From Takakia lepidozioides (Eukaryota; Plantae; Bryophyta), in the NCBI GenBank assembly GCA_030704615.1, contig CM060734.1, positions 63,178,001 to 63,242,000 on the forward strand: a DNA stretch of 64,000 nt, given 5' to 3'. The position numbers and the translations under genes are program-made. Below the pieces are notes generated by a model that ran no database searches, was not told the origin of the DNA, and saw nothing but the letters and a program-made list of their open reading frames with translations. Of the stretch, positions 17,870 through 50,171 are shown piece by piece. How positions within the stretch are numbered: the first letter of the stretch is position 1; every line of letters begins with the position of its first letter.

Positions 17870-20800
17870 CACCCCTCCTCTAGCGCTGAGTTCCTCGAGG
17901 AGCGGTAAAATCTTGGACTTGCTTAGAGTTGGAGAAAATCCAGAATCCGGCGAATGGTACGTGCCAAGTATTCGGCTCTTCGTTCTTGACTCAAATGATT
18001 TATAGGTCCCTGCAACCATTGATAGTGTCCAACACCTTGAACTTGGGACCACGCAGTGATTTGAGCATTCTGATTTTCGAAAATGCCTTCAAACATGATT
18101 TCGTTGCTCTCTGGGTCCGAAGCCTCAACCTCCAACAGAATTATCAAACTTCGAGTAGGCTCCACTTGCCGTCGTACGAGGTCCAAACAATGAAGTACGC
18201 GTCGCATTGGTGGCCCATTGTCTCGAGAGCGTCGGCGTGATGTTGAAGGTCGTGAGAGTTAGAATGGCTGATCTGGTAGCTGGGTAAGCGACAACTCCAA
18301 TATATCTGGTTCTTGTGACTCCATGCTGCGAATACAAGATGCAAGAGTGCTGGAAGTGTAGCTATATATACTTATGTGTGGTGCTCGTCCATCCTTGGCG
18401 TGTATCAGGTACATTGAATGTGGAGTGTTCTCCTTGAAGCTAGCTTGGCTGACATCATCGTTGTGACGTCTCATTGACGTATAGCTCGGGGCTTAGCTGG
18501 ATATCGTTGATGAAACACTTGGACTTTATCCGAGGCATTGACGAGGTTGGATGAAGGTTCCTACGTTCGTTCGTTGCTGTCGTAGCCTTTCCAATGTACG
18601 AAATACTCAAATCGTTTATACTTGATGCGAGACTCTAGGACTTCGTCGACTTCATACTCAATTTCCTGATTGACTTCGATTGGTGGAGGTGGTATGGAAA
18701 CTCTCCCTGGAATATTCGATGGATGATACAACTTCAATAGTGAAATATGAAAGACTGGATGGATGCGCATACTTCGTGGGAGTTCAAGCCAAAAACTGAC
18801 CGGATTTATTTGTCGAATAATTTTGAATGGTCCCAGGCGTTGATAATCCAACTTCTTTGATGGTCGCAAGGTTTGTATGTCTCATCAAAGAAGCCACACA
18901 CGATCTCCGACCTTGAACTGGGGTTGGAGTTGGCGACTTTGATCTGCATACTCCTTGTATTATTTTTGAGCTTTTGCGAGGTGGGATGTAAGCTCTTTAT
19001 GAATCGTAGCAAGATGAGTAGCAAGGTTTTTTGCAGCAGGGCTTCCAACAGTTTTCATGTGGAAAAGGTTTGCTCGAGGATGATGACCATAATTGGAGAA
19101 AAATGGAGTTTGCTTGGTCGAAGAATATATAGTGTTGTTGTAGGCAAACTCAACCAATGACAGAAGGTCCGTCCAATTATCTTGGTGATAATTTATCGTA
19201 CAGCGAAGATACTGTTCCAAAATCTGGTTTACACGTGCGGTTTGACCATCAGTCTGTGGATGATTAGCCGTAGAGAGGTTGATCTTAGTATCCAATATGT
19301 GAAATAATCCCCTCTAAATATTTGATATGAACTGTGGTCCTCGATCAGATACGATGTCCTTCGGGAGTCCATGAATGCGGTAGATATTATTAAGGAAGAG
19401 TCTTGCAGTTTCCTCGCCGGTAACCGTCTTATTACATGGAATGAAATGTGCCATCTTCGTAAAACGATCTACAATAACAAGGATTGAATCGATGGTCTTG
19501 GAAATTGGAAGGTCCGTAATAAAGTCCATAGACACGGACGACCATGGACCCTTGGGAATGGGTAATGGTTGAAGAAGGCCATAAGGTCGATGTCGTGGTC
19601 CCTTCGCTCTAGCACACGTGTCGCAAGATTTTATAAATTCTTTCACGAGTTTCCACATCTGCGGCCACCAATAGTCCCTGGATATCAACTCCAATGTTTT
19701 GTTGAAGCCGAAATGTCCAGCAGCCGGAAGATCATGACATGTTTGAAGAATTCGAAGTCGTATAGGTCCTGGAGGTACATAGAGAAATCCCTTGAAGTAA
19801 AGTAAACCAGCTTTGAATTCGAAGTCGTTTGTAACATGTGGGTTGTCTCGAGGTTGATTTAGTTGACCTCTTAGTGTCGTAGCAAAATGGTCGCTCTTTA
19901 GTGCTTCTTGAATCTCCTTTATGATCTCTGCATCGTCATAGGTGGACACGGACATCATATTCAATTGGAGATTTGTTGGTTTCAGGATGATGGATTTTTG
20001 TTGGTCAAAAGCTGCATCCCCTTCTTTTGGCGCAAGATACGATCATCGAGAAAGAGCATCTGGTTTTCCTTGAAGATGTCTGGGACAGTAGGTAATAACA
20101 AAATCAAACCTTGCTAGTGATATACTCCATCTCGCTTGACGTCGATTCAAAACACGAACACTCATAAAATATTCGAGGTTTTTGTGATCGGTATAGACAG
20201 TGACGTGATGTTTAGCTCCCTCCAATAGATGTCATCACTCCTCAAAAGCAATGATAATCGCTAGAAGTTTTTTGTCATGGATTTCATAATTGATCTCCGC
20301 AGCGGAAAATTTGCAAGAATGAAAACCAACAAGATGGAGTCGGCCATCTGTATCGTATTGAGAGAATACCGCGCCAAGTGCAAAGTCCGATGCATCTGCT
20401 TCTAAGAAGAATGGTTTAGATGGGTCTGCATGTACTAGTATGGGAGCCGTTGTAAATGTCTGCTTCAGCTTTTCAAATGCCTGGTCAGCCTTCTCGTCCC
20501 ATACAAATTTGTCCTTCCCTATGAGTCGTGTCAATGGTGCAACAATTTTGGAGTAGTCATTGATGAAGATTCTATAGAAATTTGCAAAGCCCAGAAAACA
20601 TTGTACATCTCAGACCAAAGTTGGTTTAATCCACTCGATGATGGTTTGTATTTTTTTCTGATCCATAAAGACGTCTTTGTCGAAAATAATGTAGCCCAGA
20701 AATTCGACCTCAGATTGATGGAAAAGACATTTATCCAACTTGGCATATAGTCTTTTTTCTCTTAATTTATCAATGACAAGGCGTACATGGCAGCCATGTT

Positions 20801-23254
20801 CTTCTTCATTATGTGAAAATATCAAAATGTCGTCCAAACAGATGACTACAAAGTCATCTAAAAATTCTCGAAAGATGTCATTCATCATATGTTGGAAAAT
20901 TGCTGGAGCATTTGTAAGACCGAAAGGCATAACACTGCATTCAAAATGTCCATACCTTGTTCGAAAAGTTGTTTTCCATTCGTCTCCTTCTTTTATCCGT
21001 ACAAGGTTATAAGCTCCTCTCAAGTCGATTTTGGTGAAAATCTTTGCTCGTCCCAGCTGGTCGAGAAGCCCAGAAATCAGCAGCAACGGATAACGATTCT
21101 TGATTGTGACTTTGTTGAGACCACGATAGTCGACACACATGCGTAATGATCCGTCCTTCTTTTTCACAAATAAGATAGACGCCCCTACGGGTGATTTTGA
21201 ATGTCGAATGAAGTGCTTCGACAAATTTTCATCAATGTATTCACGTAATGCAGCCAACTCCGTCTGGGATAAGTTATAGATTGGGCCGAATGGTGGTTGG
21301 GCTCCTTCTTGTAACTCAATTGCACAGTCATAAGGTCGATGTTCTGGCAATATGTCTGCATTTTTCTTCTCGAAGACATCTTTGAAATCTTGATATTGAG
21401 CGGGTAATGTTGAAGTACATTTGTCTGTTGTGGTCTTGATCGAAGTCGCATAAAGTGCAAATGTCGCCTCATTTTTGGTAGCTCTCATGAAAACTCTAGC
21501 TCCAAGGAATAGGGGTTGAATACCTTTGATATTTCTACATTTTTGTCTTGCAGAAATTTTTCGCGATCGTCAGTCGATGTCGGGATTGTGAAGTACGAAC
21601 CAGGGAAGTCCAAGGATCACAGGATTTGTTGGAGACTAGATGACATTGAAAACAATATGTGATGCTTGATCTTTAAGCTTCACTTCAAGTGGTCGAGTTT
21701 CATGGTCCACATTTCCTGATGCTAATGGTCGTCCATCGATAACTTCAACGGGGGCCGAAAGTTTATTCTTTATGAATGTTAAATTGTTTTGCTTCGCAAA
21801 GTTTTTGTCCATAAAACAAGCTGAAGCTCCTGAGTCCAAAAGTGCTTCTACAGTGATATCTCGATTTTGCACTCTAATTTTTACCGGAACTGTGAAACAA
21901 GGTGCAGGGTCTGGAGGTAGAAAGAGACATTTTTTCGGTAAGGAATTTGTGGTGTCCAGCCGCATGGTCCCTACTGTGACTGGACATCTTCATTTTCCCA
22001 CCTTCTCGTATCGATCACTTGAGCTTTGAATCTTTTCTTGTTGGGGCAGTTTAATGCTATGTGATCTTCTTCTCCGCAATAGAGGCATAATCCATTCGAG
22101 CGCCGTCTTTGTTTTTCTTGTGGCGTCAATGGCTTGAATCGGACAGCATCAATCTGCATAGGATCACTACTGGATGTCTGATGGATCGTTGTGTTTGGTG
22201 TCGTAGTAGCAGTGACATGATGCGTTGTAGACCATCCAGATCGCTTCTCTTGACGTCTTTCGAACAAACGATTATCGCATGCAATGACTTGGGTGATGAA
22301 TTCACTCAGTGTACTCTCGTTTGGCATTGTTAGCACCAAATATTTTACATCATCTTTTAGTTCACATCAAAACTGGCTAAGCTCTTCTCATTCCAGTCGA
22401 GGTCGCACGCAAGTTGTCAAAATTCGACAGCATAAACGGAAGCAGGACGTGCTCCTTGTCGAAGATTTTGCATATTTGTTTCTGCAACTCTCTCTCTATC
22501 ATTTTCTCCAAACGTTGCAGTGAACTCGGACATGAATGCTTCAAAATTATATAGTAAATGCGAATTTTTTTCTAATAGTGGTGCAAACCAAGATAGGGCA
22601 GTGCCTGACAGAAGGGTGCCCACGAATCCCACTTGAATACCTTCATCGGGATATGGTTGTGGATGTAGTCGTAGGAACAGTCGTACTTGTTGAACAAAAC
22701 CGCGAAATCTTGATCTCGTCCCATCAAATTTCTCGGGCATGCTAATCTTTGGTTCTCTCGTAATCTGTTGAAGAGGAACCATTGCAGTAGGAGCTGTTGC
22801 AATATGGACTCGTATGGTTGAAGATCCATTGTTCGACTCCTTTAACTCTAAAATTTGTTGTTACAAATTGTGTAAAGCGTTGTCAAGATCTTGAGACTGA
22901 TCAGCTTGCAATTGGGTGATAGATATACAAAGTTCTTACATCTGGAGCTGAAGACTCTGCAATGTGGTGACCATTTCCGCAAATGTGTCTTCCATCTTAA
23001 CAAACTAAAAAACAAACTTTAGTCTCGCCAAACTGTCAAGGACGAAAACACGACAAAACACAAACAAGAGATCAGACTAGAGGTACAAGACTAGACAAGA
23101 AGTCAAGGTCGGCATGGCCGAATGCATAGTAGGTGAACATGAATCAAGATGATCTTTATAACAATGGACCAGAGTGGAACTCGACTTGGATACTGGAATG
23201 CTGGAAACTAGACTGGAATACCAAACTGGACTGGATACTGGAAGCTGGACTGGA
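17870..23254 (-). mobile_element. Element D: Tcn1/Tf1-sushi-type chromovirus (partial 5' LTR 23034-23254, gag, PR, RT, RH, INT, chromodomain, extra 3' ORF, PPT); 3' LTR missing
   Basis: gag REPKISMPEKFDG, PMQID, CLYCGEEDHIALNC; ALLDSGAS; CLDD (degenerate YLDD); ADASDF; SMDFITDLP, SDRGPQF; chromodomain [16 protein letters not shown]; PPT agaggaggggtga at ~17882-17870. Confidence 0.9.
17923..18474 (-). pseudogene. Extra ORF between pol and PPT of element D, unknown function (one internal stop)
   Basis: ORFs 18259-18474 and 17923-18207 are in the same frame; the ATG overlaps the pol stop as ATGA. Confidence 0.45.
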
Positions 23255-25590: not shown

Positions 25591-26660
25591 ATCATTGTTT
25601 TCTTATGGTGAGGCTGGGTTGATGACCAGCAGACCATATGAGTGCTTGCAGTGGATGCAGGTGCAGATACAGGTCTACGTTAGAAACCTATTATTCCTGC
25701 TTGAACCAGTAGCCGCAACAGGTTCTCTACCCGGTTACCTTGTAGAAAGTGGGGATTAGAGATAGGTTGATAACCGGTTTGAGTGTGAGTTTTCATCATG
25801 GAGGTGCCACCAGGGCGGAGGATTTGGATCGGCATGATCCCATTGACTTGGTGATAGGAGGGTGGCCTTGCCAAGGACATTCACCCGCAGGTCATGGTAA
25901 TGGTTTGCAAGATGCATGATCACATCTGTTTTGGGAGATGCTGCGAGTGTTGCGCGACTTGCAGGTGAGGCAAGTGCAACCTCCAGCTTACATCCTGGAG
26001 AACGTTCCTCTCATGGGAGATTCTCGGGCCAGGGTTATGGTCAGTGTACATCAGATCCGGTCATGGATTGGACCAGCTGTATTGTTGGATGCAGCAGCAG
26101 TGGGTTCACGGGCACATAGGCCTAGGTTGTGGTGGACCAATCTTGCACCACTAGAGTTGCTCAAAAGAGCGTATGATTCCATTCAACGACCACCCAACCT
26201 CACGGTTGAGGGCATTTTGGACCAAGGGAGGCAACCACAGATAGTGCGACATGATGATCGTCTACCTTTGGCGGTGGTCAATCGAGTGGGGCAGCCACGT
26301 GCAGCCTTGCCTCCACTCATGAGCTTTCCCTCGTCTCATGCTTTTCGAGACAATGGTCCTGGGTTGATTTGGGACAGTGTGCTACAACAATTTGTGGAGC
26401 CCAATGCAGATGAGCGAGAGCGGACAATGGGATTTGCCAACAACTGTGCCAGCTCTGTCAGAGGCATCACGACGCCAGATGTTGGGTCAGGCAATGGATC
26501 TCAATTGCTTGACATGGGTCATTTGGCTTGTGTATGGCTGAGCAACGGAGATTGCAAGCCCATTGGATATTGCATCATCTCTGCCAACCGGGACGGTGGA
26601 GGCAGTGAGTAGGGGCAAGCACAGGATCATGGGATGCAAACACCCATGGCAGATGTGGGA
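25590..26660 (+). mobile_element. Element E fragment: 5' UTR/gag start joined by a ~3-kb deletion to MTase motifs IV-X
   Basis: 25590-25811 matches B ~30700-30920; then IDLVIGGWPCQG, YILENV, AHRPRLWWTNL, ERERTMGF. Confidence 0.85.
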
Positions 26661-27290
26661 TGTACGGACATAGCCCAGAGGAACTTACCAGGAGTAAATA
26701 CCAGAAGTTACCAAGTTACCATGTTACTGGAAGCTACCATGACTACCGTGATTTACCATGATCTACCATGATCTATCATGATTTACCATTACTTACCAAG
26801 TTACCGGAAGTTTACCAAATTACCAAGAGTAACTTGGGAAACTGCTCAGGAAGCTTCCTTTGGAGGAAACTTCTCCATCAAGATACCTCATTTGTTTAAG
26901 GAAGCTTCTCCATCAAGAAACCTTTGTTTAATCTTGGAAACTTCTCCAGCAAGCAACCTCCATAGGAGAAGCTTCTTAGGGAAGCTTCTTAGTAGCCAGT
27001 ATATATAGGAGGCGAGACTGGTCACTCTTCAGCCTCGCCAACACAAGTTCAAGCTACTCTTGTTCCAAGTCCAGTACTCCAGTCCAGCTTCCAGTATCCA
27101 GTCCAGTTTCCAGCATTCCAGTATCCTAGTCGAGTTCCAGTATTTTGTACTCTTGTCCATTGTTATAAAGATTATCTTGATTCACGTTCACCTACCATGC
27201 ATTCGGCCACGCCGACCTTGACTTCTTGTCTAGTCTTGTACCTCTAGTCTGATCTCTTGTTTGTGTTTTGTCGTGTTCTCGTCCTTGACA
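26661..27290 (+). repeat. Full-length LTR of family D (630 bp), no matching TSD
   Basis: TGTACGG...CCTTGACA; TATA at 27000-27007; 3' part matches the reverse complement of 23034-23254; flanks tggga / aaatg differ. Confidence 0.85.
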
Positions 27291-28402
27291 AAATGTCTCA
27301 ACTCCTCATGGGCATGGCGTACTAATCGCGCTCGTTGTGTTGGATGAGGCACAATCCTCACTCGTCCACCCTCCCATACCCGGAGTAGATGAGTCCCCTC
27401 CCACTTGAACCTCTTGGCTCGTTGTAGGACCCAATCCCTCTCCCTAGCAGTCACACTGGTTGCTGTCTCTCCGGTACGAAGGTATGTCAACACTGCTGTA
27501 TCTTCATGCACATCCTTAGCACCACCAGACTCCTCACTAGTCTTTGGATCGTCATACACGCTATCTACATGACCAATCGCATGGGATGGACCACCTTGAG
27601 CTCCCATTGCTAGAATGCACAAAAAGGCCAATGCATGTCATCCTGGCACCATCTCCTCATCCGTCTCACCATGCCACCGAGCTCCAGTATCATCAAGCTC
27701 ACTTGTGCATGGATTGCGACTCAATCCATCCGCATCCCGGTTGACTATTCCGGCTCGATGCACCACCTGGAAGTCGTACTCTTGAAGCATAAGTGCCAAC
27801 CGTGCAAGCTTCCCTGTAAGCTTGTCTGACTCCATCAACCACTTCAATGGTTGGTGATCCGTAACAAGAGTGAAGAGATTGCCATAGAGGTAGTATCTAA
27901 AATATGCCACTGCCCATACTGCAGCTAGACACTCCCCTTCATAGGAACTATACTTCGCCTCGGCATCATTGTTCGAGCGGCTAGCATATGCCACTAGGAA
28001 CTCTCTTCCCTCATCATCCACCTATGTGAGTACTGCTCCAATCCCCAACATACTCCAATCCGTATGTAGCTGGAAAGGTCACCCCGAATAGGCCGCCTCA
28101 GAATAGGTGCAGAAGTCAATCGAGCCTTGAGTTCCTCAAAGGCTTCCTCCTGCTCCTCCTCCCACTGCCACTCCTGACTCACCTTGGTCAACTTGGTAAG
28201 AGCCTTTGCAATGCTGCTAAATCCCTTGACAAACCGTCGATAGTAGTTTGTCAATCCCATGGAGGGGGATATCGGCCAGGTGTTTGGCGTTTCCACCCTA
28301 GGGACTATGTGTATCTGCAGCAGACAGCGCCTATGACCTTGGATGTTACAACAGGACATGTGATTCTAAGGGTCAATGAGGTGTTGCTTTCAGGAGTGTT
28401 GA
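27291..28402. mobile_element. Element E fragments: inverted RT-end/RH/INT-N piece (27291-28260, minus) and INT C-terminal piece (28261-28402, plus)
   Basis: GLTNYYRRFVKGFS, VAYASRSNN, RHAHEEL on minus; YVYLQQTAPMTLDVT on plus. Confidence 0.8.
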
Positions 28403-29567
28403 TGTTTGGAGTGCACATGTGTTGTGTGGTTTTGGACAGTTGTGTAGCGATATATCACCAAATATTTCTCAATGCGAAACTCGTCTACCGCTATAAGGTT
28501 ACTACTGAAGTTTTCGCCTCACTGAATTTGTGCAGACGTACCGTATATATGCACCGGTCCTCTATACCCACTTATGGGAAGTCTTGTGTGTGTGGAAGCA
28601 TGGATTCTAGGGTTTGAGAATCCTTTGTATGCATTATGGAGTCGATGGTGTGCGCCATGGCTTGTGGAGAGTGACTAAAGGCTTGTTAGAGCTAATTTCA
28701 CTATCAAGCTAGGGTTAAGCAAGTTCAAAGTGTCATGGATGTTGTGGAAAAGAAGCCAAGGAGCTACATAGGCTTGGGCTTGAAGACAACAAGGGCAAGT
28801 ACTTGGAGAGCACTAAGAAGCTCAAGAGGTTTTGAAAGGGAGCATATGAAGAAATCTTCCAATCATGGTGGTATGGAGCCAAGCTTAGGGCGCCATTGGA
28901 AGGGCTTGGAGAACATATGGTGGGAAATCCTTGAAGGGAAATCATCATTCAATGTATGCATAGCTTCACCCTAACTATGTAATGTGACAAGAGGGGGAGA
29001 CAATACTTGGTTATTCATGCTCTTGGTAGTGCGAGCTTTGTGGTGGATAGTTGACCAAACAAGTGGTGTATATGTGTAGCATGCTCTCCTGAGTTTGTAA
29101 GTTCAAGTTTGAGAAGGGGAGCTCTTGAACTAGCAAGAGGTGAAGGCCTTGAGATCCATTTGTGTGTGAAGTGGAGAGGTGTTGATTCATGTTATGATGA
29201 AGGAGAGCAACACATAGGCCAAGAGGTCATGGAACATGCATTCAAATGAGCAAGGGGAACACATGGATGATGGATTGGTGCAAGACCCCAAATGAGGCAT
29301 ATGGCGTGAGAGTGGGATCCAAGGCGGATTGCTTGGGAGCATTATTGTAAGTGACAAGCATTGCTCCTACACATTGAGATAATTTGTGTTGATTTGGAGC
29401 AATTGTCAAGTGATGAGGAACCACTCTTGGTTGCACATTGGGGTGGAAGAGAGCAAGAAGATGCCTCATATGACCACCTAGAGACCATATTTTTGCTTGA
29501 GTAGAAGCATAGAAGTCAAAGACTTGCATTCTAGCTCTTCATTACAAACCCTAGTAATGTATGCTCA

Positions 29568-30140
29568 GACTATACCTCTGTTAGTATACCAAACAAGAGC
29601 TTGTCCCTTTGACTATACCTCTGTTGAGGTATCACCATATGTGAACCCTAATGTGAGACTATACCTCTGTTAGTATACCAAACATGAGCTTGTCCATTTT
29701 ACTATACCTCTACTGAGGTATCACCATATGTGAACCCTAATCAGCTCAGACTATACCTTTGTTAGTATACCAAATAGGAGCTTGTCCCTTTGACTATACC
29801 TCTGTTGAGGTATCACCATATATGAACCCTAATGTGAGACTATACCTCTGTTAGTATACCAAACAGGAGCTTGTCCATTTTACTATACCTCTATTGAGGT
29901 ATCACCATATGTGAACCCTAATCAGCTCAGACTATACCTCTGTTAGTATACCAAACAGGAGCTTGTCCCTTTTACTATACCTCTGTTGAGGTATTACCAT
30001 ATGTGGACCCTAATCAGCTCAGACTATACCTTTGTTAGTATACCAAACAGAACCCTCATTTTCAGACTATACCTCTGTAAGGGTATCATCAACATAAGGG
30101 ACCTTAGCAACCTCAAACTATACCTCTGTTAAGGTATCAA
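29568..30140 (+). repeat. Tandem array of ~13 monomers (~44-50 bp) in alternating A/B types with a ~180-bp higher-order period, in the 5' UTR of B
   Basis: Each monomer starts actatacctctgtt; type A continues agtataccaaac, type B continues gaggtatcaccatatg; A1 at 29568, A3 at 29748, A5 at 29929. Confidence 0.9.
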
Positions 30141-30904: not shown

Positions 30905-33790
30905 ACGGAGGTGCCACCAGTTCCTGAGGAGAATGCCGGTACGAGCACCAGCGATACTAGTGGGTATACAAGACGAGGTGTGCGGTTTAGACCACCTTCA
31001 CCTTCAGTGTCTTCTGAGGAAGGTTCAGACTCGGAGTCAGGAGGATTCTCGCCGAGGGTGCAAGCCATTTCCATGCCATTGTTGTGGGATACGATGGAGG
31101 AAATGTACGGAGCTACTAAGGGGCCACGACGGTACTCTGGAGCTGTGGGCACCATCGAGCTTGATGATTTCATATAAGACTTTGATAGTTGGTATGATTT
31201 GCAGCAGATGCGTAATCCACAACTGTTTACGCCTTTTATAGCGTGGAAGGGGCTGTTTCAGCACCTTGAGGGGTCGCCTATGGATGACTATCATGAGTTT
31301 AGGCGGGGAAATGAGGTGGAGATTGAGGAGTGGTGACAATATTGGTCACTTGACTATGTCTCCATCACTAGAGGCACAAGGGCAGCGGCGATACCAGCAA
31401 CTACACCAACATCCCCAACTGCAAGCACTCGTAGTGAGACAAGTAAAGATGGAGCTGGGAAATTCACTCAAGCTCCTGCTGCAGCACCAACACCCGTGCC
31501 TGCCTTTAACCCAGTTGTGGAGTTCTTCGAGGAGTTGGGGAGAAACTACCAGGGGATAAGGACGGAGAAGTTGCGGAGCTTGCAAGAGTTCCAGCGCAAG
31601 CCTACTGAGAGTTTGAGGGAGGCTTACACACGCATGAGGCGATTGATAAATGTAACCCAAGGAGTTACGGAAGCTCAAGCAGTCCAATTTTGGTATGGGA
31701 TATTGGACAAAGAGCTGAGGAGAAGGGTGCGGGATGCAACTCTCCTACAAGTGGACCAACCCACCTTAGCAAACGTGTTTTTGCTCGCAGGCTGAGTGAG
31801 TGGTCATGGTGGGGTTTGGTAAGGAGACACAACAAAGCGGGGCTCCTAGCCAACAACAACCAATACCCCAACGTGCTCAAGGCAACAAGGGGGCTCAGGC
31901 GAAGCCCAGGAAAGGACAGAGAGGATCTCAATTGCAGAGGTCATTTCCTTCATTCTCAGGCCAACAACAGTCGGGTGTGACATATTGGGATTGTGGAGGA
32001 TCCCATGTTAAGAGAGATTGCCCGGAGAGAGGCAAAGGGCCGGCACAGGCACAACCTACACAACTACAGTGTGGGCATTGTGGCAAGTATGGGCATGAGG
32101 AGGCCCATTGTTATGACTTGCCTCCTGAGCTACGGCCAGGCCAGTTCCAAGGAAACAATGGTGGCCGAGGACAAGGCAATATAGTCCAGAGAGGTAGAGG
32201 AGGCAGAGGTCGCAACCAAAACCAGGGAGCACAAGGTCAAGGTCAAGGTCATGACCAAGGCATGGTGGATAGGCTTGCCCAACTAGAGCAACGTCTTGCT
32301 ACCATGGCCACTACGCATGTTGTGCCAGCTCCAAGGCCTGAGGTTCAAGCCCCACCTGCACAACCTCCTATGCCTAGGGAAGACCACATTGGTATGGGCT
32401 TCATGTGTGGAGCCGCACTTGCAGGACCATTGCATGTGGACTCTGCAGCTGCTGTCACTCGAGCAGCAACGCGTGCTCCTGAGCCAAGAGGAGCAGATGT
32501 GGATTTTGATCCACAAAGAGGGGAAGCAAGTCGACAGACAAGGCTTCCACAGTTTTTTCACATTGGCTGAGACAGTGCCAACTACGCCATCGATGGTACC
32601 CGCTCCCCCAAGTGTGTCAGAGGTAGAGCCACGAGTGCCAGTGGGGAGAATTGGTGTGGCTCGGGAAATGCCAGTGGATGGTGCTGCAAAGCAAGGTGCA
32701 GCCAGTACATTGTTGAGGGCGGCTACGGCTATTTGCCAAGCTCCATTGTTTTCTGCAATGACCATTGCAATGCCAGGGATTCGTCCAGCTGCTCTATTCA
32801 GACTAGGTGCTAGACTCTGTGAGAGTGGTGATGCATCGACACTATCTGTGGAGATAGCAGATAAGGTGCAGTCTATGGATGCTTTGGATTGGAGGGTGAA
32901 GTCAGCCACAGCTGTGCCATGGCAAGCGGCAGCTGCAAGGTTACAGGAGTTGCCAGCTAGACCAGCCATTGAGCGTAGTATGGTGACTCCTGGGGTAGTC
33001 CTGGTGGACAATCAGGATGGTGTAATTCAGTTGGGTGGCCCAGCCGGGATGATGTATAGGCCACTACGGGTCTTGTTGGACTCAGGAGCACAGCCATTGA
33101 TGTTGGGAAGAGCAGCAATTGCAGGCTTGGGCCTTATAGAGGCGGATTTGGAGCCTTGTCATTTCAAAATTCAAACATCTTTGGGCGGTTTAGAGAAGGC
33201 ACGAGGGATTACACGCCATGAGCTCTTCATTCGATTACAGCCGGATCATCCTACGGACGGCTCAGTCATGAGAGCTAAAGCCATTGTTACGGACGCGATG
33301 TCTTATGATGTGCTTGCTGGTGGGGCAGTGTTATACCCCATGGGATTGACTCTGGACTTTTGGGAGGAAACGACATCCTACAGGCCGGAATGGCAGTTAG
33401 GAGATGGCCGACGTGCACTGCTTCCAGTGCGGTTTATTGGGAATGTAGCGGTGGATCATAGGAACATGATGCCCACATTGGCTGCATTCTCAGGGGTGGT
33501 GGCTTGGGGTGGTGAGCTCTTGGAGGGCAATAGCCATGCAGATGATAGGCCATCACCTGATGAGGAAAAACAATTGGCATACAAGGCTGATTTGCTTCCT
33601 CATGTGCCTGTGCATATTCCACTGTGGGGTACGGTTGGGAATTTGCATCAAGTAGCAGGCGAGTGTGTGCACCAAGCATGGCAGGAGGCCTTTCCATTGG
33701 TGAGTGAGGGGAGTTCAGTGACATCACCTGGACCTCCTGAGTTAGCTCCTTTGGACACAGTGCCCATTACCTGGCAACCACCTGACTCAG
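30905..33790 (+). pseudogene. Element B gag + aspartic protease
   Basis: GYTRRGVRFRPPSP, LRSLQEFQR, CGHCGKYGHEEAHC; protease VLLDSGAQPL and SYDVLAGG. Confidence 0.85.
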
Positions 33791-33792
33791 GG

Positions 33793-34770
33793 ATTTGTTT
33801 GCTAGACTTGTTTGGAGGCATGAGCACTGGGCTTGCAGGAGTATTGCAAGCAGGGATTAAAGTACGCAAGTACTTGTATGTGGAGAAGGATGAGATAGCT
33901 TAGCGTATTGCTATGTGCCACATCGCCTTGCTCACACACTAGTATCCCAAGTTGTTGCATCTCTCAGCAATTCAAGGGTATCAAAAGGCCTTGCCAGCAG
34001 ACATTACCTTGCTGGGGGCGGATGATTTGGACCGGCATGGTGCCATTGACTTGGTGATAGCTGGATGGCCTTGCCAATGACACTCTCCCGCAGGTCATGG
34101 GAATGGCTTGCATGATGCACGATCGCATTTGTTTTGGGAGATGTTGCGAGTGTTGCGTGACTTGCAGGTGAGGCAAGTGCAACCTCCAGCTTACATCCTG
34201 GAGAATGTTCCTCTCATGGGGGATTCTTGCGCCAGGGTTATGGCTAGTGTGCATCAGATCCGGTCATGGATTGGACCAGCTGTATTGTTGGATGCAGCAG
34301 CAGTGGGTTCACGGGTACATAGGCCTAGGTTGTGGTGGACCAATCTTGCACCACCAGAGTTGCTCAAGAGAGCCTATGATTCCATTCAATGGCCACCCAA
34401 CCTCACGGTTGAGGGCATTTTGGACCAAGGGAGGCAACCACAAAGAGTGCGACATGATGACCGCCCACCTCTATTAGTGATAAATTGAGTAGGGCAGCCA
34501 CGTGCAACCTTGCTTACGTTCATGAGCTTTTCCTCGTTTCATGCTTTTAGAGACAATGGTCCTGGGTTGATTTGGGACAGTGTGCTACAACAATTGGTGG
34601 AGCCCAATGTGGATGAGCGAGAGCGGGCAATGGGATTTGCCACGGGTACTACAACTGTGCCAGCTCTGTCAGAGGCATCACGACGCCAGGTGTTGGGTCA
34701 GGCAATGGATCTCAATTGCTTGACATGGGTCATTGGCTTGTGCATGGCTGAGCAACGGAGATTGCAAGCA
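33793..34770 (+). pseudogene. Element B DNMT3-like C5 cytosine methyltransferase domain, in frame with protease and RT
   Basis: LLDLFGG, YVEKD, ADI, DLVIAGWPCQ, LFWEMLRVL, ILENV, DAAAVGSRVHRPRLWWTNL, ERERAMGF, RRQVLGQAM; several in-frame stops but a single reading frame. Confidence 0.9.
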
Positions 34771-35274
34771 TTAGCGGCTACTTCTGCACTTCCATTGGAT
34801 ATTGCACCATCTCTGCCAACCGGGAGGGTGGAGGCAGTGAGTGGGGGCGAGCACAGGATCATGGGGTGCAAACACCCATGGCAGATGTGGGATGAGATGC
34901 GCAAAGAGAGAGTCATTGGATCTCTCAAGCAGCAGTATGAGGAGTGGGGAGAGCCATGGACTTAGGATCAGTTGGAGGCCAAGATGGCCAAGGTTTTTGA
35001 AGAGGTTGCGAATGTTTCTTGGTCAGATGATGTTCTCAAGGTGGCTACGGCGGAGCAAGTGGAGGCTACGCCACAGTCAGATTGGGTGGACAAGGCCCAA
35101 GAGGTTGCTATCTAGCAACCAAAGGATTCGTCTCCTACCTCCGCGCCTGGTGTACCCAAGGTTGCAGTCACTGAGGACAATTGGGAACCAGATGTTGGAC
35201 CTACAGTCACCGGAGGAGAGAAACGGAGGATCCAGCGATTTCTAAGGGCTTATAGAAATTGCTTTGCCTTCAGT

Positions 35275-38249
35275 TTGAAGGATTTGGGGAGTTTGAAGGG
35301 TCAGGAGATTCATATTGATTTAGCAAGTGACACGCCAATTTTTCGAAGGCCCAACAGGTATAGTGATATAGAGAGGTCTTTGATCCAGTCACGGACTATG
35401 GAGTTGTTCAAAGTTGGATTGGTGGAGTTGTCAGGCGGGGAGTATGCCTCGGCAACGGTGATGCCAGCTAAGAAGGATATCTATGGCAATTGGACAGAAA
35501 GGAGGATGTGTGGGGACTACCATCCTGTGAACCGTCAGATTAAGTCCGATAGATATGCCATGCCAACTCCAGAGGAGATCTTTGATGCCATTGGGCATGC
35601 AAAGGTGTTTAGCACATTGGACTTGCGATCCGGTTACCACCAGTTGCCAATCAAAGAGGCTGACAAGCAAAATATGGCATTCTGGGGGATTGACCAACAT
35701 GGGAAGGATTGCTTGTACCAATGGCGGTTCCTACCGTTTGGGTTGAAGAATGCTCCTGCAAAGTTTCAGAGGGTTATGGATAAGATTCTTGCAGGGCTAG
35801 ACTTCGCTCGGTGCTACATTGATGATATCATCATCTTTAGTGCCACGGTTGAGGAGCATGAGAGACATCTTCAGGTGGTGTTTGAGCGCTTGAGAGCGTA
35901 TGGATTGAAACTACACCCTGGAAAGTGCAAGTTCTTCCACGATCAGATTGAGTATTTGGGCCACGTGATATACCCTGGAGGATTGGATGTTCAACAGACA
36001 AAGGTGGAGGTCATTGCACGCATTCCACGCCCCATAGATGTAAGCAAAGTTCGTGCTTTAATGAGGTTGACAAACTATTATCGACGGTTTGTCAAGGGAT
36101 TTAGCAGCATTGCAAAGGCTCTTACTAAGTTGATCAAGGTGGGTCAGGAGTGGCAGTGGGAGGAGGAGCAGGAAGAAGCCTTTGAGGAACTCAAGGCTCG
36201 ATTGACTTCTGTGCCTATTCTGAGGCTGCTTATTCGGGGGCGGTCTTTCCAGCTACATACGGATTGGAGTATGCTGGGGATTGGAGCAGTGCTCACACAA
36301 GTGGATGATGAAGGAAGAGAGTTCATCGTGGCATATGCTAGCCGCTCGAACAATGATGCTGAGGCGAAGAATAGTTCTTATGAAGGGAGGTGTCTGGCTG
36401 CAGTATAGACAGTGACACATTTTAGATGCTACCTCTATGACAATCTCTTCACCCTTGTCACGGATCACCAACCATTGAAGTGGTTGAAGGAGTCAGACAA
36501 GCTTACAGGGAAGCTTGCACGGTGGGCACTTATGCTTCAAGAGTAGGACTTCTAGGTGGTGCATCGAGTCGGTATAGTCAATCGGGATGTAGATGGATTG
36601 AGTCGTAATCCATGCACGAACGAGTATGATGATACTGGCGCTCGGTGGCATGATGAGACGGATGAGGAGATGGTGCTAGGATGATATGCATCTGCCTTTT
36701 TGTGCATCCTAGCAATGGGAGCTCAAGCTAGTCCATCCCATGCAATAGGTCATGTAGATAGTGTGCATGACAATCCAGAGACTAGTGAGGAGTTTGGTGG
36801 TGCTAAGGATGTGCATGAAGATGCAGCAGTGTTGGCATACCTTCGTACCGGAGAGACGACAGCCAGTGTGACTGTTAAAGAGAGAGATCGGGTCCTACAA
36901 CGAGCCAAGAGATTCAAGTGGGAGGGGACTCACCTACTCCGAGTATGGGAGGATGGACGAGTGAGGATTATGCCTCATCCAACACAACGAGCGCGATTGA
37001 TACGCCATGCCCATGAGGAGTTGGGATATTTTGGGGTGCGGCGCACTCATAGTTTGCTGCAAGGACAATATTGGTGGCGGGGCATGCACACGGATGTGCA
37101 ACAATTACTGGCAAGATGCATGGTGTGTGATAGAGTGCGGGCTTCTTTCAATGCAGCTACTCCACAATTGCATCATTTACTCATTATGGGTTTGGGCTAT
37201 CGTTGGAGTCTTGACTTCGCAGGCCCATTGCCATTAACTATTCACCATAACAAATATGTGCTGGTGATGGTGGAACATTTCTCCAAATGGATTGAATTGG
37301 TGGCATTTCCTGACAAGACAAGTGAGGGGGTTGCGTATGCATTCTTAGATCTAGTGCTTAGCCAATTTGGTGCTCCAGCCAAGGTACTCACGGACCAGGG
37401 GAGAGAATTCTTGGGAGAGTTTCAGGCTTTGTGTGAGTAAACCTTGATAGATCACCGCACTACTTCTCGGGATCATCCCGAGGCTGATGGCTTGGCCGAG
37501 AGGGTTGTGCAAACAGTCAAGCGAGGCTTGCGCAAGTATTGTTTGCAGAAGGGACACTTGGGAGATTGGGACCTTCAGCTACCTTGGTTGGCTATGAACT
37601 ACAAGTTTTGCAAACAAGCATCACTTGCCTCGTTCTCGCCTTATTTTCTTCTTTTTGGCCGAGAGTCAGATTTGCCTGCATCTATTCGCAGGGGAGACTA
37701 CAGTAGTCCTCAACCTTGATGATCCGGATGTGTGGACACAAGCATGTGCCCAACGGGCAGAGTTGTTCAAGAGAGTCATGCCTATGGCTTTTGAGAACCT
37801 TGCTATTGCCCAACACCGAGACACATTGAGGTACGTCACTATACGTGGAGGGGGATATCGGCTAGATGTTCTTCCATCCTGGGGACTATGTGTATTTGCA
37901 GCAGACAGCGCCTACGACCTTGGATGTCACAGTAGGTCGTGTGATTCTAAGGGTCCGGGAGGTGTTGCCTTCAGGAGTGTTGATTCTGGAGGGTCGAGAT
38001 GGCATGGTATGGAAGGACCATGTGCACAATTGTGCGCCATGTCACCTTTCACATGTGGATGGGAGGATAGATCCCAACCTTGCAGTGGTACCTGCAGGGT
38101 TGCGTTGCATGCTATGTGTGCATGCTGGTGGTGCCGCGACCATGTTGGTGTGTGACAAATGCTCAAGGGGGTGGCACATGGGATACTTGACACCGCCACT
38201 TGAGGAGGTTCCTAGTGGAGAATGGTTGTGTCCACGATGCCTTGGATAG
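35275..38249 (+). pseudogene. Element B RT, RNase H, integrase and PHD finger
   Basis: [22 protein letters not shown]; HTDWS; SLDFAG, LTDQG, GLAERVV; PHD CMLC..CDKC..WHMGY(C>Y)..WLCPRC. Confidence 0.9.
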
Positions 38250-40180
38250 AGGTAGTGGGGCATGACAGTGGTGAGGTTGACAAGTGATCCAAGGTCTAGC
38301 TAACGGGAGTTCAATGCCATGGACACCCAATTGAAGCCATGGATTGTAGGAAGGCGAGTAACGATGGGGCTATTTTTTCACCCGGCCTCTTGATCTATTG
38401 CCTTCAGATACTGGGACTTGGGCGATTGATGACCAAACGATGATCTTATTGGGATGGATACTTGTCAGCTATCCGGTGTTAGAGGGACCTAATCACCAGC
38501 TAGGGGGGCGATTGTGGTATAGCTTGTGTAGTGGACACCGATGTATGTTGTGGCACGATGCTTAGGTGCACGACACCTCAATTGATCTCTACCTCATGCT
38601 ATGCCTCACAGTGTGCACTGGTCCCTTGGGATTTGCAGCCCCGAGGGCCTTACGGGTCATAGAGAGGGACGGAAATGCTTTCCTGTAATTTGACCACCAT
38701 ACCGCTTGTGAATATGACAACATCAAAAAAACAAGATGGGATTGATCCATTGCTGGTGTGACCAATGCTTAGAAGCATCCATGAATTTATGATGTCAGAA
38801 AATCCAAAAAGAAAATTTAAAAAAAGAAAACAATTTAAAGTTACAAAACTGTAGTCTCTAGTCTCTACAGAGTCCGATTGGCGATAAGCAAACATTACAA
38901 AATATTCCAACTAAGTTATCCTCTCATCATGCCACCTCCCCGCCCTCACATCAAAATAATTCTTGTTCATGGGCTTTGCTTGGTTGGTTGGTTGGTTGGA
39001 AGGTTTGGAAGAGTGTGGGGCCACTCAAGTTTGAATCGACGCTGCCACCCAAGTTTCAGTTTGAATCGGAGGGGCACTAACTTAACTGAGAGTTGTGCAA
39101 GCAGCGATGCGGCAGTGAGGGAGGGGGCGTCAGCAGTTTGTGTGGACATGTCAGTTGCTAACTGTTTCTGCACTCTCTCATCCCAGGCTCCATGCCCACT
39201 TGTCAACTCTTTCCGGAAGGCTTGGTGAGCAGGGGCGGCTTCAGAAGCGAGTGGAGGGTTGCATGCGCAGGAAGGGCATGGCACCCACCGCCTTCTCAAT
39301 CAATCGTACCTCACAATCATGCGCGAAACTTTATCCATCATAAGATAATTAGGTTTTGAGTAATGCAGTGGTTTGTTAGTGGCTTTGAGGTGGATGAAAT
39401 GTGATTAAGAGGTGGAGAGGGGGTGGGATGGTGGGGGGGGGGTGGTTGGGAGAGGATTCCGTCAGGGAGTGTTGGCATCCTCGCACGTCTGCCCACCCGC
39501 TCCTCTTGCAGCCGTGGAGTTCGGCATCCCCGCCAGGCGCCCTGAGATGTCTTGGAGGTGAGGGCGTGGGAGATTCCTATCTGTATTGGGTCGAGGTTGG
39601 ATTGAGGTTTGCATTGCTGTATCGATGATCTCCTGTCACCACGTTGTGGAATTGCATGTTGTGGCGGGGGATTCCCTCTAATTGGGTTTTCTTTCTGACA
39701 TGGGAGTAAAAGCCAACATCTGGTCGCTTTATGATAGGATGGGGTATGGAGGTGATGAGTGTTGGAGATGCTGCATTGGCTTGACGTTTCTATAAGCTCT
39801 GTGTCCTTGCTTGTATCCATCGCCCTCTGTCTGCGTGTCTCGTAAATTTCGTAGATTTGGTGGGTTCGGTGAGAATGGTCCACATGGGATCTTGGAGGCT
39901 CTAGGACAAGGCATTTGGCTCGGGGCGAGTCATTTGCACTCAAGCGTATGTTATGCGAGTTTTGAGACTTGTCTAAGATGGGCTTCTGGCGGCCTTGGAT
40001 GACGATGGGGGAGTTGGAGGTGGAAGTTGATAGCACCATTGCGCCCATGAAGATTCTCTTCAAGATTGATTTTCTCAGTAAGGAGCTCCGAGCCGTGAAT
40101 CTGATGAATGTGTGAGCACCTTATGCCTGTCTCCGGCTCTTGCCTGCTTCTCCCTCTTGCATTTCCTCACACCACCAGCC

Positions 40181-43100
40181 ATGGTTATTGAGCCATCACT
40201 TCCAGTACCTTCGCCACTGGACATCACGATTTCACCGGCAGTTTCCTCAGGAGCGGAGATCAATGGAAACTATGCGGTCACGAACTCAACTCCAGTTGCG
40301 TCGTCCAAAGTGGTTAAGAACAGCCCATGGAAATCTTTGAAGAAACCTTCCAGGAAATCTCCGAATTTTCCGCCCAGGAGCTCCCCAGGACGACCACCTT
40401 TGGAGGAAGGCGCGGCGGCTGAAAAATCAAAAAAGAGCTTGCCTTTGGATGGAGTCTTACCAGAAAAGCAAGAATTGGACTCGCCGGAACAAACAAATTG
40501 CGACCAGAATTCCCCCCATGCTCAACAAACCGAGCAAGGGCATATTGTTACCTCTGAAGGCATGCCTGAGAAAGTGAAGGACCAGGAAGTGAAGGGACCA
40601 GAAGCACTGCTTGAAAAAGACCTTCAATTCTCAGCTGAAGAAGACTCCCAGGAGAAATGCTCACCCGAGAAAGCCTCAAAGAGAAAGGGGTCCTCCCCAA
40701 TTCCGCTCACCCAAGGCCTTGAGAAACTCCATTGTAGGAAAAGCCGGTTCGGACTCACACAAAGCATACCAGCCAGTGGGAGTTTCAGTGAGGGAGGGAG
40801 TGATGAAGAATCTCTGGACTCAGGTCCAAAATTAATATCTGTATCCACACTTGAGGCATACCTGAAAAATGAAACAGGATCCAAAAGTCCTCATCTGGGT
40901 TCATATCTACTCAAGCTTGCAAAATCATATGCTTTGGGAGAGAATTTTGCCAAGGCAATAGAGTACGGTAACCAGGCAGTCAAATTCTACGAGAAACAAT
41001 CTAATGGAAAGCCTTGTTTGGATCTTGTGGTAAGCCTTCATATAGTAGCAGCCTTGAACTGCCGACTGGAGAAGTTTGAAGAGGCTATTCCGCTGCTTGA
41101 GCGTTCAGTTGCTATCCCGGACTTGAGCGAAGGTGAGGAACATGCCCTTGCTAAATTTGCCGGGCACATGCAGCTTGGTGACACGTTGAATCTACTTGGA
41201 AGGCAGGAAGCTGCATTGCAGTCCTACCATGCTGCCCTGCAAGTCCAAAAGGAAACTCTTGGAGAACTGGATCCACGGGTCGGGGAGACCTGCCACTACA
41301 TTGCTGAAGCCCACTTGCAGGTAAAAATTTGCACCTGCATTTGCTCTTCACTCTTATGTCTCTTCTCTACATGTTTTCTCCCTCTTGGTTTTTTCTTTCA
41401 CTCTTTGACTGCTGTAGTTGTGTGTGTGGGAAGGACAGTTCAATTGCTGCATTTCTGTCTCTTGTAAATTGTGTAGTCAACTGCTAATACAATTCATACG
41501 AGTGTTTGAAAAGATTACCATTGCGTTAATTCTGTTTGAAAATATGAGTAGTGCAGGCAATGGAGTTCCAAGAAGCTGAGGTTCTGTGTGAGCACGCCTT
41601 AGCCATTCATAAAGAACACAGTGAGGCAGGTTCTTTGGAGGAAGCTGCTGACGGCCGGCTCCTGGCTCTAATCTACAGTGCAAAAGGTGACCACGAAAAT
41701 GCATTGGAGAATTTGGTCCATGCTAATGCAACCCTTCTAGCAAATGATATGCAGGTGAGGTTTGCGTACTAACTCTGAGATTTTTTGTCAGTGAGACCTT
41801 GGTCAAGTGTGATCACAACCACTAGTATATCATAATAGTGAGAGCAACGTCTATCAGCTAAAGTGATAGTGGACAGTGGAAAAATTCACCCATTTTTGAT
41901 ACAGAATTGCCTTGGCACCACCAAAACAATTGCAGTTTGCACCTAAATTTTGTATAGAAATCTCGCAGACTAATCGATCAGATGTATTACCATGATATGA
42001 AATATGTTACACAGGTGCAATATGGGCAGGTTCTGTTTCATGGACCCACCAGTGGCTAACTTTTATGTTTTGTTTTCAGAAGACATCCACTGAACACCTG
42101 AAAGAGTACTAACCCCGTCTTATAGAATGCTTTGAAACTCTGGGAGGAGGGACATTCTGGCTTTCCGTTAAGATTTTATGTAAATGGAAAGCTGTGCTTC
42201 TGAATTGTTCTGTCAATTCTGCTGGTAAGCATACGTTTTTATGCTCAGAGGAGGACCTGCTCTGGTCTATGTTAGAAATGCTCGGTTTTGGAATCTCTGA
42301 ACCTTCCAGTGGAAATCAGAAGAGTGAAATGTTACTCTGCTGGTGGAGGATTGGACTCGCAGATTCATTTCCACATGGGTCACTCAACTGTATATTGGAC
42401 TCTTCTGCCTAGTGTAGTGAGAATAGAACTGATGGTTAAGCAAAGCTCTTTGAGCTCACGATTTCCTAATTCTTGCAGACCTTAGTCCAATCCCCACTTC
42501 AGGTTTCACATCAGAGATCTGCCTTAGCATCCAATCTCATGAATTGGGTGGACTACTGCAAATTTTTGCAGATTGATGTGGCAGCCATCAACTCAAGCAT
42601 TGGTGACGCCCTTTTGGCACTGGGTCGTGATGGAGAAGCAGTTCTTTCCTACCAGAAGGCTCTCACAGTTTTCAAGGCCTTGAAAGGAGACAACCACACT
42701 TTGGTAGCTTCCACTTATATCAGCTTAGCTGAACTCTATCTGAGAACCAACAAGCTTCGTGAAGCAAAAACCTACTGCGAGAGCGCACTTTGTATTTACG
42801 GCAAGCAGGGTGCTGGCCATGCCCCTGCCCCTTCCCCTGAAGATGTCGCCAATGGACTGACAGATATTGCTGCTATTTTCGAACAATTGAATGAAAAAGA
42901 GACGGCGCTCCTCCTCCTTCAGCGGGCTCTCAAAATTCAAGATAATATCCCAGGTCAGAAACTTCCATTCTCCTAACTTCCCCCTGACTTCTTCTCTTCA
43001 TGTTATGTTTGAAGAGACCTAGGATGGAGGTTTCCCTGTAGGAGTATACTAGTTATTTAGAAGAGGTGCATCTCTCATAGATGCCTTTCGATGCATCTGC

Positions 43101-44591
43101 CACAGGTCAGCAACTTGCAGTCACCAAAATTTGAAAGCTCACGAGGTTCATGTAGGTCTTGGAAGTTTTAAGTTTTCCCCATCGACACAGTAGTCCAATT
43201 TCCTTTTAACAATGATATTGATAATCTGTATCCTATGTGGTTGTGGCCCTAAATTTTACAGGCCAGCAATTTGCAGTGGGTGGCATTGAAGCCCAGATGG
43301 GGATTCTCTACAATATGATGGAAAAATTCATGCCTGCATTGGATGCTTTCAAGAGTGCCAGTATCAAGTTGAAGGGTGGAGGGGTGAAGAAAACTGCTCT
43401 GTTAGGCATACTCTTAAATCAAATGGGCATAACGTGTGTTGAGCTAGGTGAGATCAAGCAAGCATCACAGTTGTTTGAGGAGTCAAAGAGTGTGTTAGAG
43501 GACACTTGTGGACCTCACCATCCTGATACGCTGGATGTCTGCACTAATCTGGCCAGCACCTACGATGCACTTGGAAGGTACTCCCTTTCTTGCTGCTCTC
43601 CCTCTCTCTTTTCTGCTTGGCAGCTCAAAGATTTATGTGCATCAGGTAGAGAGCTACAATGTGATGTCAATATCAGCGCCGATGTGAATGTTTGATGCTA
43701 ATATGATTCTAGTGTGATGTCAGATGTGACCCTTCAATCAACACTCCATTCTGAACGACTGGATTGTTCTGGGCTGTACATGACAAATATGTGCATTTGG
43801 GGTTTAGTTTTCTATACCCTGGTGGATTAAAATCCACATTGGGCTCCTGGAGAGCTAGTATGTGTGTCTCTCCATGTGTGTCTCAGCAAAATTGGCGGAA
43901 ATGGTCGATCGGTAATCTCCATCAATTTTCAATGTGAAGTGTCCTTTGCCATCCTTGAATGGCGAGGCAACTTTGGTCTGAGTTGCCTACATGGGCTCCA
44001 GGAATGCTAGTATCCTGGAGAGACTAGGTGTTCTGTCATACCCATGTTTGATCTCCCCAACAAAAAACTTGCGACTGAACTCCTACTATATCCCTCATAA
44101 TGCTGGTTCAAGAGAAAGGGAGCTGCCCTTTCTCTCTCTCTCTCTTGAGCATTGACCAGGTAGCCCAGCGGTTGGGTGTTTGTGCCTTGCCTGTGCATAA
44201 CCTGGGTGATCCTGGGTTCAATCCTTCAACATGCACCTTCAATTGTACATTGGCCCCTTGATGGGCTGTGTGTTGAGCAGTAGGCTCTGTGAATTCACTG
44301 GATGTTAAATAAGCTTTATCTTCATCTCTCCCCAGTTAATGTAAAAGTTTCTAACTTTCTTCTGTTGAGGTAACTTATTGGGCATGCAGATTAGAGGATG
44401 CCATTAAGCTGCTGGAAGAGATTGTGCAAGTGAAGGAGGAGAAGCTTGGCACAGTGCACCCCGACATTCATGATGACCGCAAGCGGCTGCAGGAGTTGCT
44501 CAAGGATGTGGGCCGATCCCGCACACACAAGTCCCGCAAGCTTGAAGAGTTACTTTTGAATGCTAGAAAGGAGAATTCGAAATCCAAGTGA
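40181..44591 (+). CDS. KLCR: Kinesin light chain-related TPR protein (KLCR/CMU family); exons ~40181-41320, 41557-41754, 42572-42953, 43262-43577, 44390-44591
   Basis: TPR repeats; EEHALAKFAGHMQLGD, DPRVGETCHYIAEAH, GIEAQMG, CGPHHPDTLDVCTNLASTYDALGR, EEKLGTVHPD..RLQELLK; GT-AG boundaries. The 5' start could lie further upstream. Confidence 0.85.
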
Positions 44592-49805: not shown

Positions 49806-50171
49806 ACCACCCGTCAAAGGAGTGACATTAACACTCGAAATCCGAGAGCACTAACGTGGTAATCTCTGCTCTGCCATTGATGTTTGCACACGCCTCACAC
49901 ACAGCCAGACACTTGACAAGTAGAGAGCCTGCATCCCTCGCACTAAACCCTAAACCCTGACAACGTTTTTGAGATGCAATTGAAGTGGGCAAAACTCAGG
50001 AACCCTAATTGTGTAGGTGACAGTGGAAACACATAAGACTTGATCCAGTAGCGTGGACGGAATATGAACTTGATCCAGTAGTGTGGCATGCAAGTGTGCG
50101 AGCAAACAGTGAAGGGGAACGGACGGGGCTGGTAGGGAGCGTGGACGGAATATGAAGCATCAGGTGCCACC
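49806..50171. promoter_or_regulatory. Short divergent intergenic/promoter region with telo-box
   Basis: 366 bp between divergent ATGs; aaaccctaaaccct at ~49945; repeated acttgatccagtag.gtgg / cgtggacggaatatga. Confidence 0.6.

Follow-up and report, generated by a model that had tools for sequence, protein, structure and literature searches.

A DNMT3-like cytosine methyltransferase in the pol frame of dead split-repeat Gypsy copies from a moss, and its likely activity on new cDNA in intact members

Why a transposon carries an enzyme of the class that silences transposons has been an open question since 2018. The sole Gypsy enzyme assayed, KnitGypsy-Dnmt3 of Klebsormidium nitens, was inactive in yeast, a result that its authors deem inconclusive (PMC5890265). 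The same question is raised by the window, i.e., the whole 64,000-nucleotide stretch of DNA analysed here, in which a first-pass annotation had described a complete DNMT3-like cytosine methyltransferase in one reading frame with the protease and RT of a Gypsy pol. Every motif named in that description was located in the domain of copy B at 33793-34770(+), including DLFGG, GWPCQ, LENV, HRPRLWWTNL, ERAMGF, and RQVLGQA, with motifs I-X in order. Without any frameshift, the frame 32287-37440(+) took in the protease, the methyltransferase, RT, RNase H, and the first part of the integrase, which confirmed the in-frame position between protease and RT. The DNA-methylase profile PF00145 matched the domain of copy B with 47.9 bits (E 1.7e-12) and that of copy A with 45.0 bits, against a Pfam cut-off of 22. 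The word "complete" held for the motif set but not for the copy B ORF, since 4 of the 11 stops in its pol frame fell within the methyltransferase domain (33901, 33940, 34078 directly after PCQ, and 34486).

The other parts of copy B were also located on the plus strand. The frameshifted gag region (capsid, zinc knuckle) occupied 31094-32570, its start being approximate; it matched Retrotrans_gag at E 4e-4, under the cut-off of that profile, and resembled the gag of Marchantia proteins. The aspartic protease region (32962-33441) was recognized from sequence by its LLDSG motif, with the Asp codon at 33079. No Pfam match to the protease was obtained in copy B itself, and Asp_protease_2 was matched at the corresponding position in the Klebsormidium and Closterium relatives. 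Downstream of the methyltransferase, we found RT (motif YIDD) and RNase H at 35242-36516 (RVT_1, E 1.7e-32; RT_RNaseH_2, E 1.4e-21), followed by a DDE integrase (H2C2 and rve) at 36907-37690, which was broken by a stop and frameshifts and had an approximate end. A chromodomain was absent after the integrase, and a PHD finger stood there instead, at the end of pol (38106-38240; PF00628, E 5.6e-9). After the polypurine tract (PPT, 38502-38511) came one B repeat only (38512-38575). In the window, neither the 5′ end nor the target duplication of copy B was found. A tandem array of 89-92 bp units was observed at 29563-30131, in or near the 5′ leader. Copy B is dead.

As previously annotated, the domain also occurred in copies A and E. 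In copy A, on the minus strand, the entire domain was present at 7250-6273, interrupted by one stop; it was recognized by its motifs, PF00145, and PDB sequence and fold matches. Its RNase H, integrase, and PHD finger (3966-4100) lay within 3966-6002, and RT was deleted at about 6003. A contig of sequencing run X13, perhaps an RNA run, had about 1.09 kb at the deletion point, and loose ends were found there in runs X1, X5, and X6; the loss of RT is therefore peculiar to copy A. In copy E, motifs IV-X spanned 25815-26591(+), a stretch interrupted by one stop and one frameshift. None of the three window copies is intact. Two more fragments of the family, each 91% identical to copy B, were an inverted RT end with RNase H and integrase start (27289-28260, minus strand) and a piece of the methyltransferase-RT spacer (17433-17885, minus strand). 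Copy E was interrupted by an unrelated LTR-like insert (26663-27289), part of which recurred inverted at 23034-23242. An array of short GT-rich units, unrelated in sequence to the array of copy B, was observed at 10256-10648, in or near the 5′ leader of copy A, and two long hairpin-like inverted repeats (2413-2520 and 2670-2768) lay right past its 3′ end. At 2770-2853(-), 160 bases past the end of copy A, a second and shorter B-type repeat resembled that of copy B; since contigs in the sequencing runs connected such a repeat directly to a PPT, it is likely the end of a copy of another subfamily.

The surroundings included a nest of chromovirus-type Gypsy elements at 12030-17433. The nest had a 3′ LTR on the minus strand (12030-12741), with remains of a chromodomain near 13660-13860; another LTR, on the plus strand (13880-14718), was accompanied by gag-pol and a primer site of the tRNA-Met type. 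Host genes on the plus strand encoded a TPR protein (40082-43700) and an RsgA GTPase (50136-51257), both identified by Pfam, and a single-exon gene of 265 aa (62425-63219) had no Pfam match and was conserved, with 97 matches from green plants and algae.

To identify the domain, sequence and structure comparisons were used. The PDB sequence comparison ranked DNMT3A best (E 5e-11), followed by DNMT3B/C, DRM (E 6e-6), and HhaI (E 1e-3). The structure model of the copy A domain had a pLDDT of 90.6 (28-row alignment), and the top match of the fold search with this model was 6f57, a DNMT3A (E 2.9e-19, TM 0.72); among the matches listed, all were DNMT3. The circular permutation typical of DRM was absent, motif I coming first and IX-X last, collinear with DNMT3A; the un-permuted order therefore excludes DRM. 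Judged by sequence similarity and predicted fold, the domain is a DNMT3-like cytosine methyltransferase and not a DRM or bacterial enzyme, and the earlier assignment to DNMT3 over DRM stood. Its DNMT3 descent rests on similarity and a published tree, because our methyltransferase tree included one animal DNMT3, without host plant DNMT3, DRM, CMT, or MET1, and long branches meet in it. The catalytic PC, ENV, and RxR motifs were present in the order I-X. The catalytic Cys was retained in 52 of the 53 copies covering that column, and the full Cys/Glu/Arg/Arg set was intact in 29 of 57 copies, with losses mainly at the arginines. From bryophytes to chlorophytes, the Cys, ENV, and the motif VIII arginines were conserved; four relatives (P0147, P0148, P0151, and P0158) had ECQ in place of PCQ, with the Cys still there.

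The distribution of the domain indicated that it was part of a family. A near-length protein search gave 168 matches among 7999 candidates scored, the named ones coming from Calypogeia fissa, Sphagnum, Marchantia, and Riccia, and a longer-protein search gave 44 among 7995, including Marchantia gag-protease-methyltransferase ORFs at 73%. These proteins established relatives in land plants; no vascular plant was among the named matches, most matches bearing no name. A land-plant host for the window was supported by one host gene, which grouped the window with mosses, outside Ceratodon/Physcomitrium (SH-aLRT 96; one gene, quick tree); a hornwort host, considered at first, was rejected on this grouping. 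Of 69 metagenome loci, 54 were family members, and the remaining loci (L052, L053, and L057-L069) were distant methyltransferases counted outside the family. The PR-MT-RT order was found in 27 of the 54 and another order in none; because the domain was what retrieved these loci, the counts apply to members that carry it. The metagenome loci placed on the tree clustered with Sphagnum proteins. In L031/L036, no methyltransferase or protease match was found in about 950 bases upstream of an RT related to the family. The relatives across bryophytes and algae and the 54 loci bore out the annotation's view that the domain belonged to the family and was not a one-off capture.

A profile search returned 610 representatives at E up to 1e-30. 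For 148 of the best 150 of these 610, the domain lay after the protease or before RT in 13, after RNase H/RT or before the integrase in 93, and alone in 42. Among 20 named relatives, the first order occurred in Klebsormidium nitens and Closterium and the second in Scenedesmus and Cymbomonas. The streptophyte relatives (Marchantia, Calypogeia, Riccia, Sphagnum, Closterium, and Klebsormidium) had the domain between protease and RT, and the chlorophyte relatives had it between RNase H and integrase; the PHD finger terminated pol in both orders. In the methyltransferase tree, which had just three outgroups, all 32 retro-domain rows, the Klebsormidium protein included, formed a single clade (98/96), which supports common descent with the Klebsormidium domain as judged from sequence. 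The RNase H-methyltransferase-integrase order formed a nested clade (100/98), and the window and bryophyte copies formed another clade (100/99). The main groups of the RT tree agreed with those of the methyltransferase tree, and monophyly of the PR-MT type on the latter had a p-AU of 0.06. Since the window elements fell outside the liverwort and Sphagnum group, old parallel lineages or transfer are needed. P0149 and P0273, at first typed as PR-MT on a loose motif match, were rejected as such, both falling with the RNase H-methyltransferase-integrase type. The liverwort ORFs P0123, P0125, and P0126 stopped at a similar place, about 70 residues past the methyltransferase, which may represent either a regulated stop before RT or merely decayed gene models; in the Sphagnum-like loci, RT was kept in frame with the methyltransferase. 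The DNMT3-like domain of L060 (8001-8900), in a 1369-codon ORF, fell outside the green-plant clade and, under a provisional coral-type label, may be of the SymbioDIRS kind.

To evaluate the constraint on the domain, dN/dS was calculated. Between copies A and B, the value for the methyltransferase domain was 0.113 (NG86, 315 codons; dS 1.56, near saturation), compared with 0.119 for the protease, 0.089 for RNase H, 0.110 for the integrase, and 0.311 for gag (NG86). The domain between A and B is thus constrained like the protease and integrase, i.e., it is under purifying selection between subfamilies. The domain gave 0.171 for A-E and 0.369 for the close pair B-E. Among the 54 Sphagnum-like metagenome copies, which were mutually close and decayed, the median was 0.66 in the domain, 0.76 in the protease, 0.45 in RT, 0.33 in RNase H, and 0.47 in the integrase. 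The inter-copy values of A-B and A-E lay under 0.2, as in KnitGypsy-Dnmt3, with B-E and the recent Sphagnum-like copies higher. A search for stop-free copies yielded 1 of 41 near-full copies. We consider it almost certain that the domain is a real, selected part of the family. A neutral passenger, in which a captured fragment of host DNMT3 merely hitchhikes, would account for the high dN/dS within recent copies and the many stops; the low ratio between subfamilies, the retention of the domain across green plants, and the agreement of the methyltransferase and RT trees on the main groups make this reading scarcely credible.

The synonymous CpG ratios were 0.19/0.38 in copy A and 0.28/0.29 in copy B. 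The only two comparators, neighbouring Gypsy elements that lack the domain, had ratios of 0.63/0.73 and 0.96/1.20. The CpG loss was strong in copy A although its A repeats differed by just 1.6%. Host exons were depleted as well (0.46/0.49), and much of the loss may therefore be due to host methylation. The pattern fits CG methylation of the lineage, self and host methylation not being told apart by these ratios. A Tf2/Tcn1-like Gypsy pol at 19314-21569(-) was CWG-depleted and not CpG-depleted, the reverse of the methyltransferase-bearing family.

The ends of the elements were then compared. The family had the PR-RT-RH-INT order, the DDE integrase, the PPT, and the short target duplication of Ty3/Gypsy elements; its integrated copies did not have two full LTRs at their ends, which were instead split into A at one end and B-A-B at the other. 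In copy A, on the minus strand, repeat A1 (11713-12029), which had lost its first ~10 bases at the inserted chromovirus LTR (12030-12741), was followed by the coding region, the PPT (3707-3698), B1 (3697-3520), the dinucleotide GC, A2 (3517-3191), and B2 (3190-3014), the last forming the 3′ end and being 88% identical to B1, with indels. A1 and A2 showed 5 differences in 318 bases (1.6%), all transitions. The full A-coding-B-A-B arrangement was also found in L029 and L031/L036, and the B-A-B 3′ end in L042 and L044. A single-B 3′ end was present at 8 loci and in window copy B. Eighteen loci with A at the 5′ end represented 14 independent insertions, and B lay upstream in 0 of 14; these counts omit L018 (partial B, rearranged context) and L043/L045 (A cut short). 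The 14 independent 5′ ends began with TGTCATG in 11 cases, with one change in 2, and were eroded in 1. A 4-bp target duplication was supported by agreement at 22 of 24 bases over 6 insertions with both ends, 3- or 5-bp registers being unfit; because its 5′ flank was lost, copy A had no testable duplication. In run X4, from the window's own species and possibly its source sample, at least 16 contigs exited the element at 3517 and at least 24 at 3520, and their flanks beyond these points were diverse (agreement 0.40 and 0.39). The B/A junction of copy A (3514-3523, minus strand), a candidate integrase site, was the exact palindrome GACA-GC-TGTC, which lay 1-3 changes away in five loci. The A/B joint united the PBS-side end with the PPT-side end and contained no primer remnants.

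No tRNA-type primer site was found after A1 of copy A. Instead, the 12 bases after A1 (11701-11712, minus strand), a predicted self-priming site, were an exact complement of 11878-11889 in mid-A; a complement this long arose in 3 of 10000 shuffles, and the fold had a z of -6.5. Among the metagenome loci, where the site differed at 5 of 11 bases, 13 of 18 had their best complement at the corresponding position. No Pfam match to a tyrosine recombinase was obtained in the scanned ORFs of the element on either strand, and the rve integrase was present. Split repeats combined with a DDE integrase and 4-bp duplications are at odds with the standard LTR route.

One route that would yield these ends begins with transcription from mid-A and self-primed reverse transcription of the RNA, as in Tf1/Tcn1, which would yield a cDNA flanked on both sides by an ordinary LTR (B+A). 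Joining of the cDNA ends would produce the precise A/B joint, and the DDE integrase would then cleave the palindromic B/A junction inside the PBS-side LTR and insert from there, leaving A-coding-B-A-B. HIV integrase cuts a palindromic 2-LTR junction in vitro (PMC1905944), and further in vitro precedents exist for retroviral integrase (PMC1180852 and PMC4372172). A 2-LTR circle has two equal B/A sites, so A-B-A-coding-B copies would be expected, and their absence among the 14 insertions argues against the circle. This absence could be accounted for by a linear route, in which RT runs on into a second B or the integrase cuts both internal junctions of a longer cDNA, and the single-B ends point the same way. 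However, the A/B joint resembles a ligated junction, and one insertion was seen in a long (L042) and a short (L021) form, so the short forms can arise by B x B recombination or assembly collapse. We regard the linear route as rather doubtful and favour insertion from a joined intermediate.

Under insertion from a joined intermediate, the methyltransferase would ride in the particle within pol and mark the cDNA, so that a new copy would arrive methylated. The enzyme is probably active in intact members, and we lean, with modest confidence, towards their own cDNA as its main substrate. The enzyme might instead work chiefly after insertion, tethered to the chromosome via the integrase and PHD finger, where it would methylate the insertion site or resident copies and set the chromatin state or limit copy number. 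The PHD finger in both domain orders suits such a role, as do copy A, L016, and L049/L050, which retain the methyltransferase though RT is lost, and a slowing of retrotransposition by the domain has been raised before (PMC5890265). We nevertheless consider chromosomal action unlikely, as the fusion of the domain within pol, beside RT or between RNase H and integrase, points to the particle, and the RT-less copies are few and could be chance deletions. It is still less likely that the domain serves as a DNA-binding or structural module, e.g., one that keeps the ends of the cDNA, or the internal junction, in place for the integrase, with methyl transfer weak or incidental; the inactivity of the Klebsormidium domain in yeast (PMC5890265) and the ECQ variants agree with this, but the variants have the Cys, the catalytic residues are retained from bryophytes to chlorophytes, and CpG was lost at synonymous sites. 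As a long shot, integrase sites may have moved to mid-LTR in an ancient green-plant Gypsy clade that inserts from end-joined cDNA, with DNMT3 methylating the palindrome so that only one of two equal sites is cut and the junction in the chromosome is protected against a second cut; integrase and methyltransferase would then be paired within a retrotransposon much as in a restriction-modification system. The window holds dead Gypsy copies; on balance, intact members of the family probably encode an active enzyme that likely methylates CG sites on their own new cDNA.

Tf1/Sushi and Tcn1 elements have ordinary LTRs. They share predicted self-priming with the window family, and Tcn1 is present in moss and club-moss (PMC6317226); the window family differs in having no chromodomain, and its RT grouped apart from the window's two chromovirus/Tf2-like RTs. 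As the first-pass annotation had stated, DNMT-bearing retrotransposons were already published (de Mendoza et al. 2018, PMC5890265). KnitGypsy-Dnmt3 of K. nitens, with Ka/Ks under 0.2, likewise combines an un-permuted DNMT3-like domain in a Gypsy pol with purifying selection and DIRS-arranged repeats (PMC5890265). It differs in its algal host and its identity of 36% to the window domain, and in the abstract, results, and discussion of that paper we found neither a PHD finger nor a priming mode, a target duplication, or a model of integration. The suggestion that the architecture was possibly undescribed did not hold, since the K. nitens protein GAQ93235.1 has a gag-protease-methyltransferase order (zinc knuckle, protease, methyltransferase) and lies in the same clade as the window domain; GAQ93235.1 is a partial protein and may not be the element of Fig. 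4c of PMC5890265. SymbioDIRS-Dnmt3 of Symbiodinium shares DNMT3 in pol, A-coding-B-A-B repeats, and two domain orders, and Symbiodinium retro-DNMT3s methylate CG in yeast (PMC5890265); unlike the window family, with its rve integrase and 4-bp target duplications, SymbioDIRS-Dnmt3 encodes a tyrosine recombinase in an ORF of its own. PAT-like, Ngaro, and VIPER elements have the same A1-coding-B1-A2-B2 split direct repeats (PMC6681497) and a tyrosine recombinase, of which none was found in the window family. The Chlamydomonas Gypsy-7a_cRei and REM1-type elements are also green-lineage Gypsy polyproteins with a PHD finger, whereas they have two LTRs, and no methyltransferase is listed for them in the part of 10.1101/2022.06.16.496473 that describes them.

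In a literature search that covered little subscription literature and no Repbase reports, we found no account of a land-plant Gypsy-DNMT3 and, beyond the 2018 figure legend, none of split repeats in integrase-bearing elements. The accessible portions of PMC10952607 and PMC9477723 made no mention of such elements. The KnitGypsy-Dnmt3 paper is cited for "streptophytes" in 10.64898/2026.05.21.726589 and PMC12344493, whose supplements may contain land-plant sequences. The window family is a land-plant member of the KnitGypsy-Dnmt3 kind, to which our analysis adds a land-plant and chlorophyte range, two domain orders, and evidence for an unusual insertion route.

For annotation, tools that seek paired LTRs would miss split-repeat elements of this type, and relatives annotated as genes can muddle host DNMT3 counts. 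That streptophytes have one domain order and chlorophytes the other suggests that the domain was captured once, long ago, and later changed position, and that such elements are no oddity of Klebsormidium. Since relatives are annotated as unnamed genes in the genetic model Marchantia polymorpha and in Sphagnum, the role of the enzyme is testable in a land plant.
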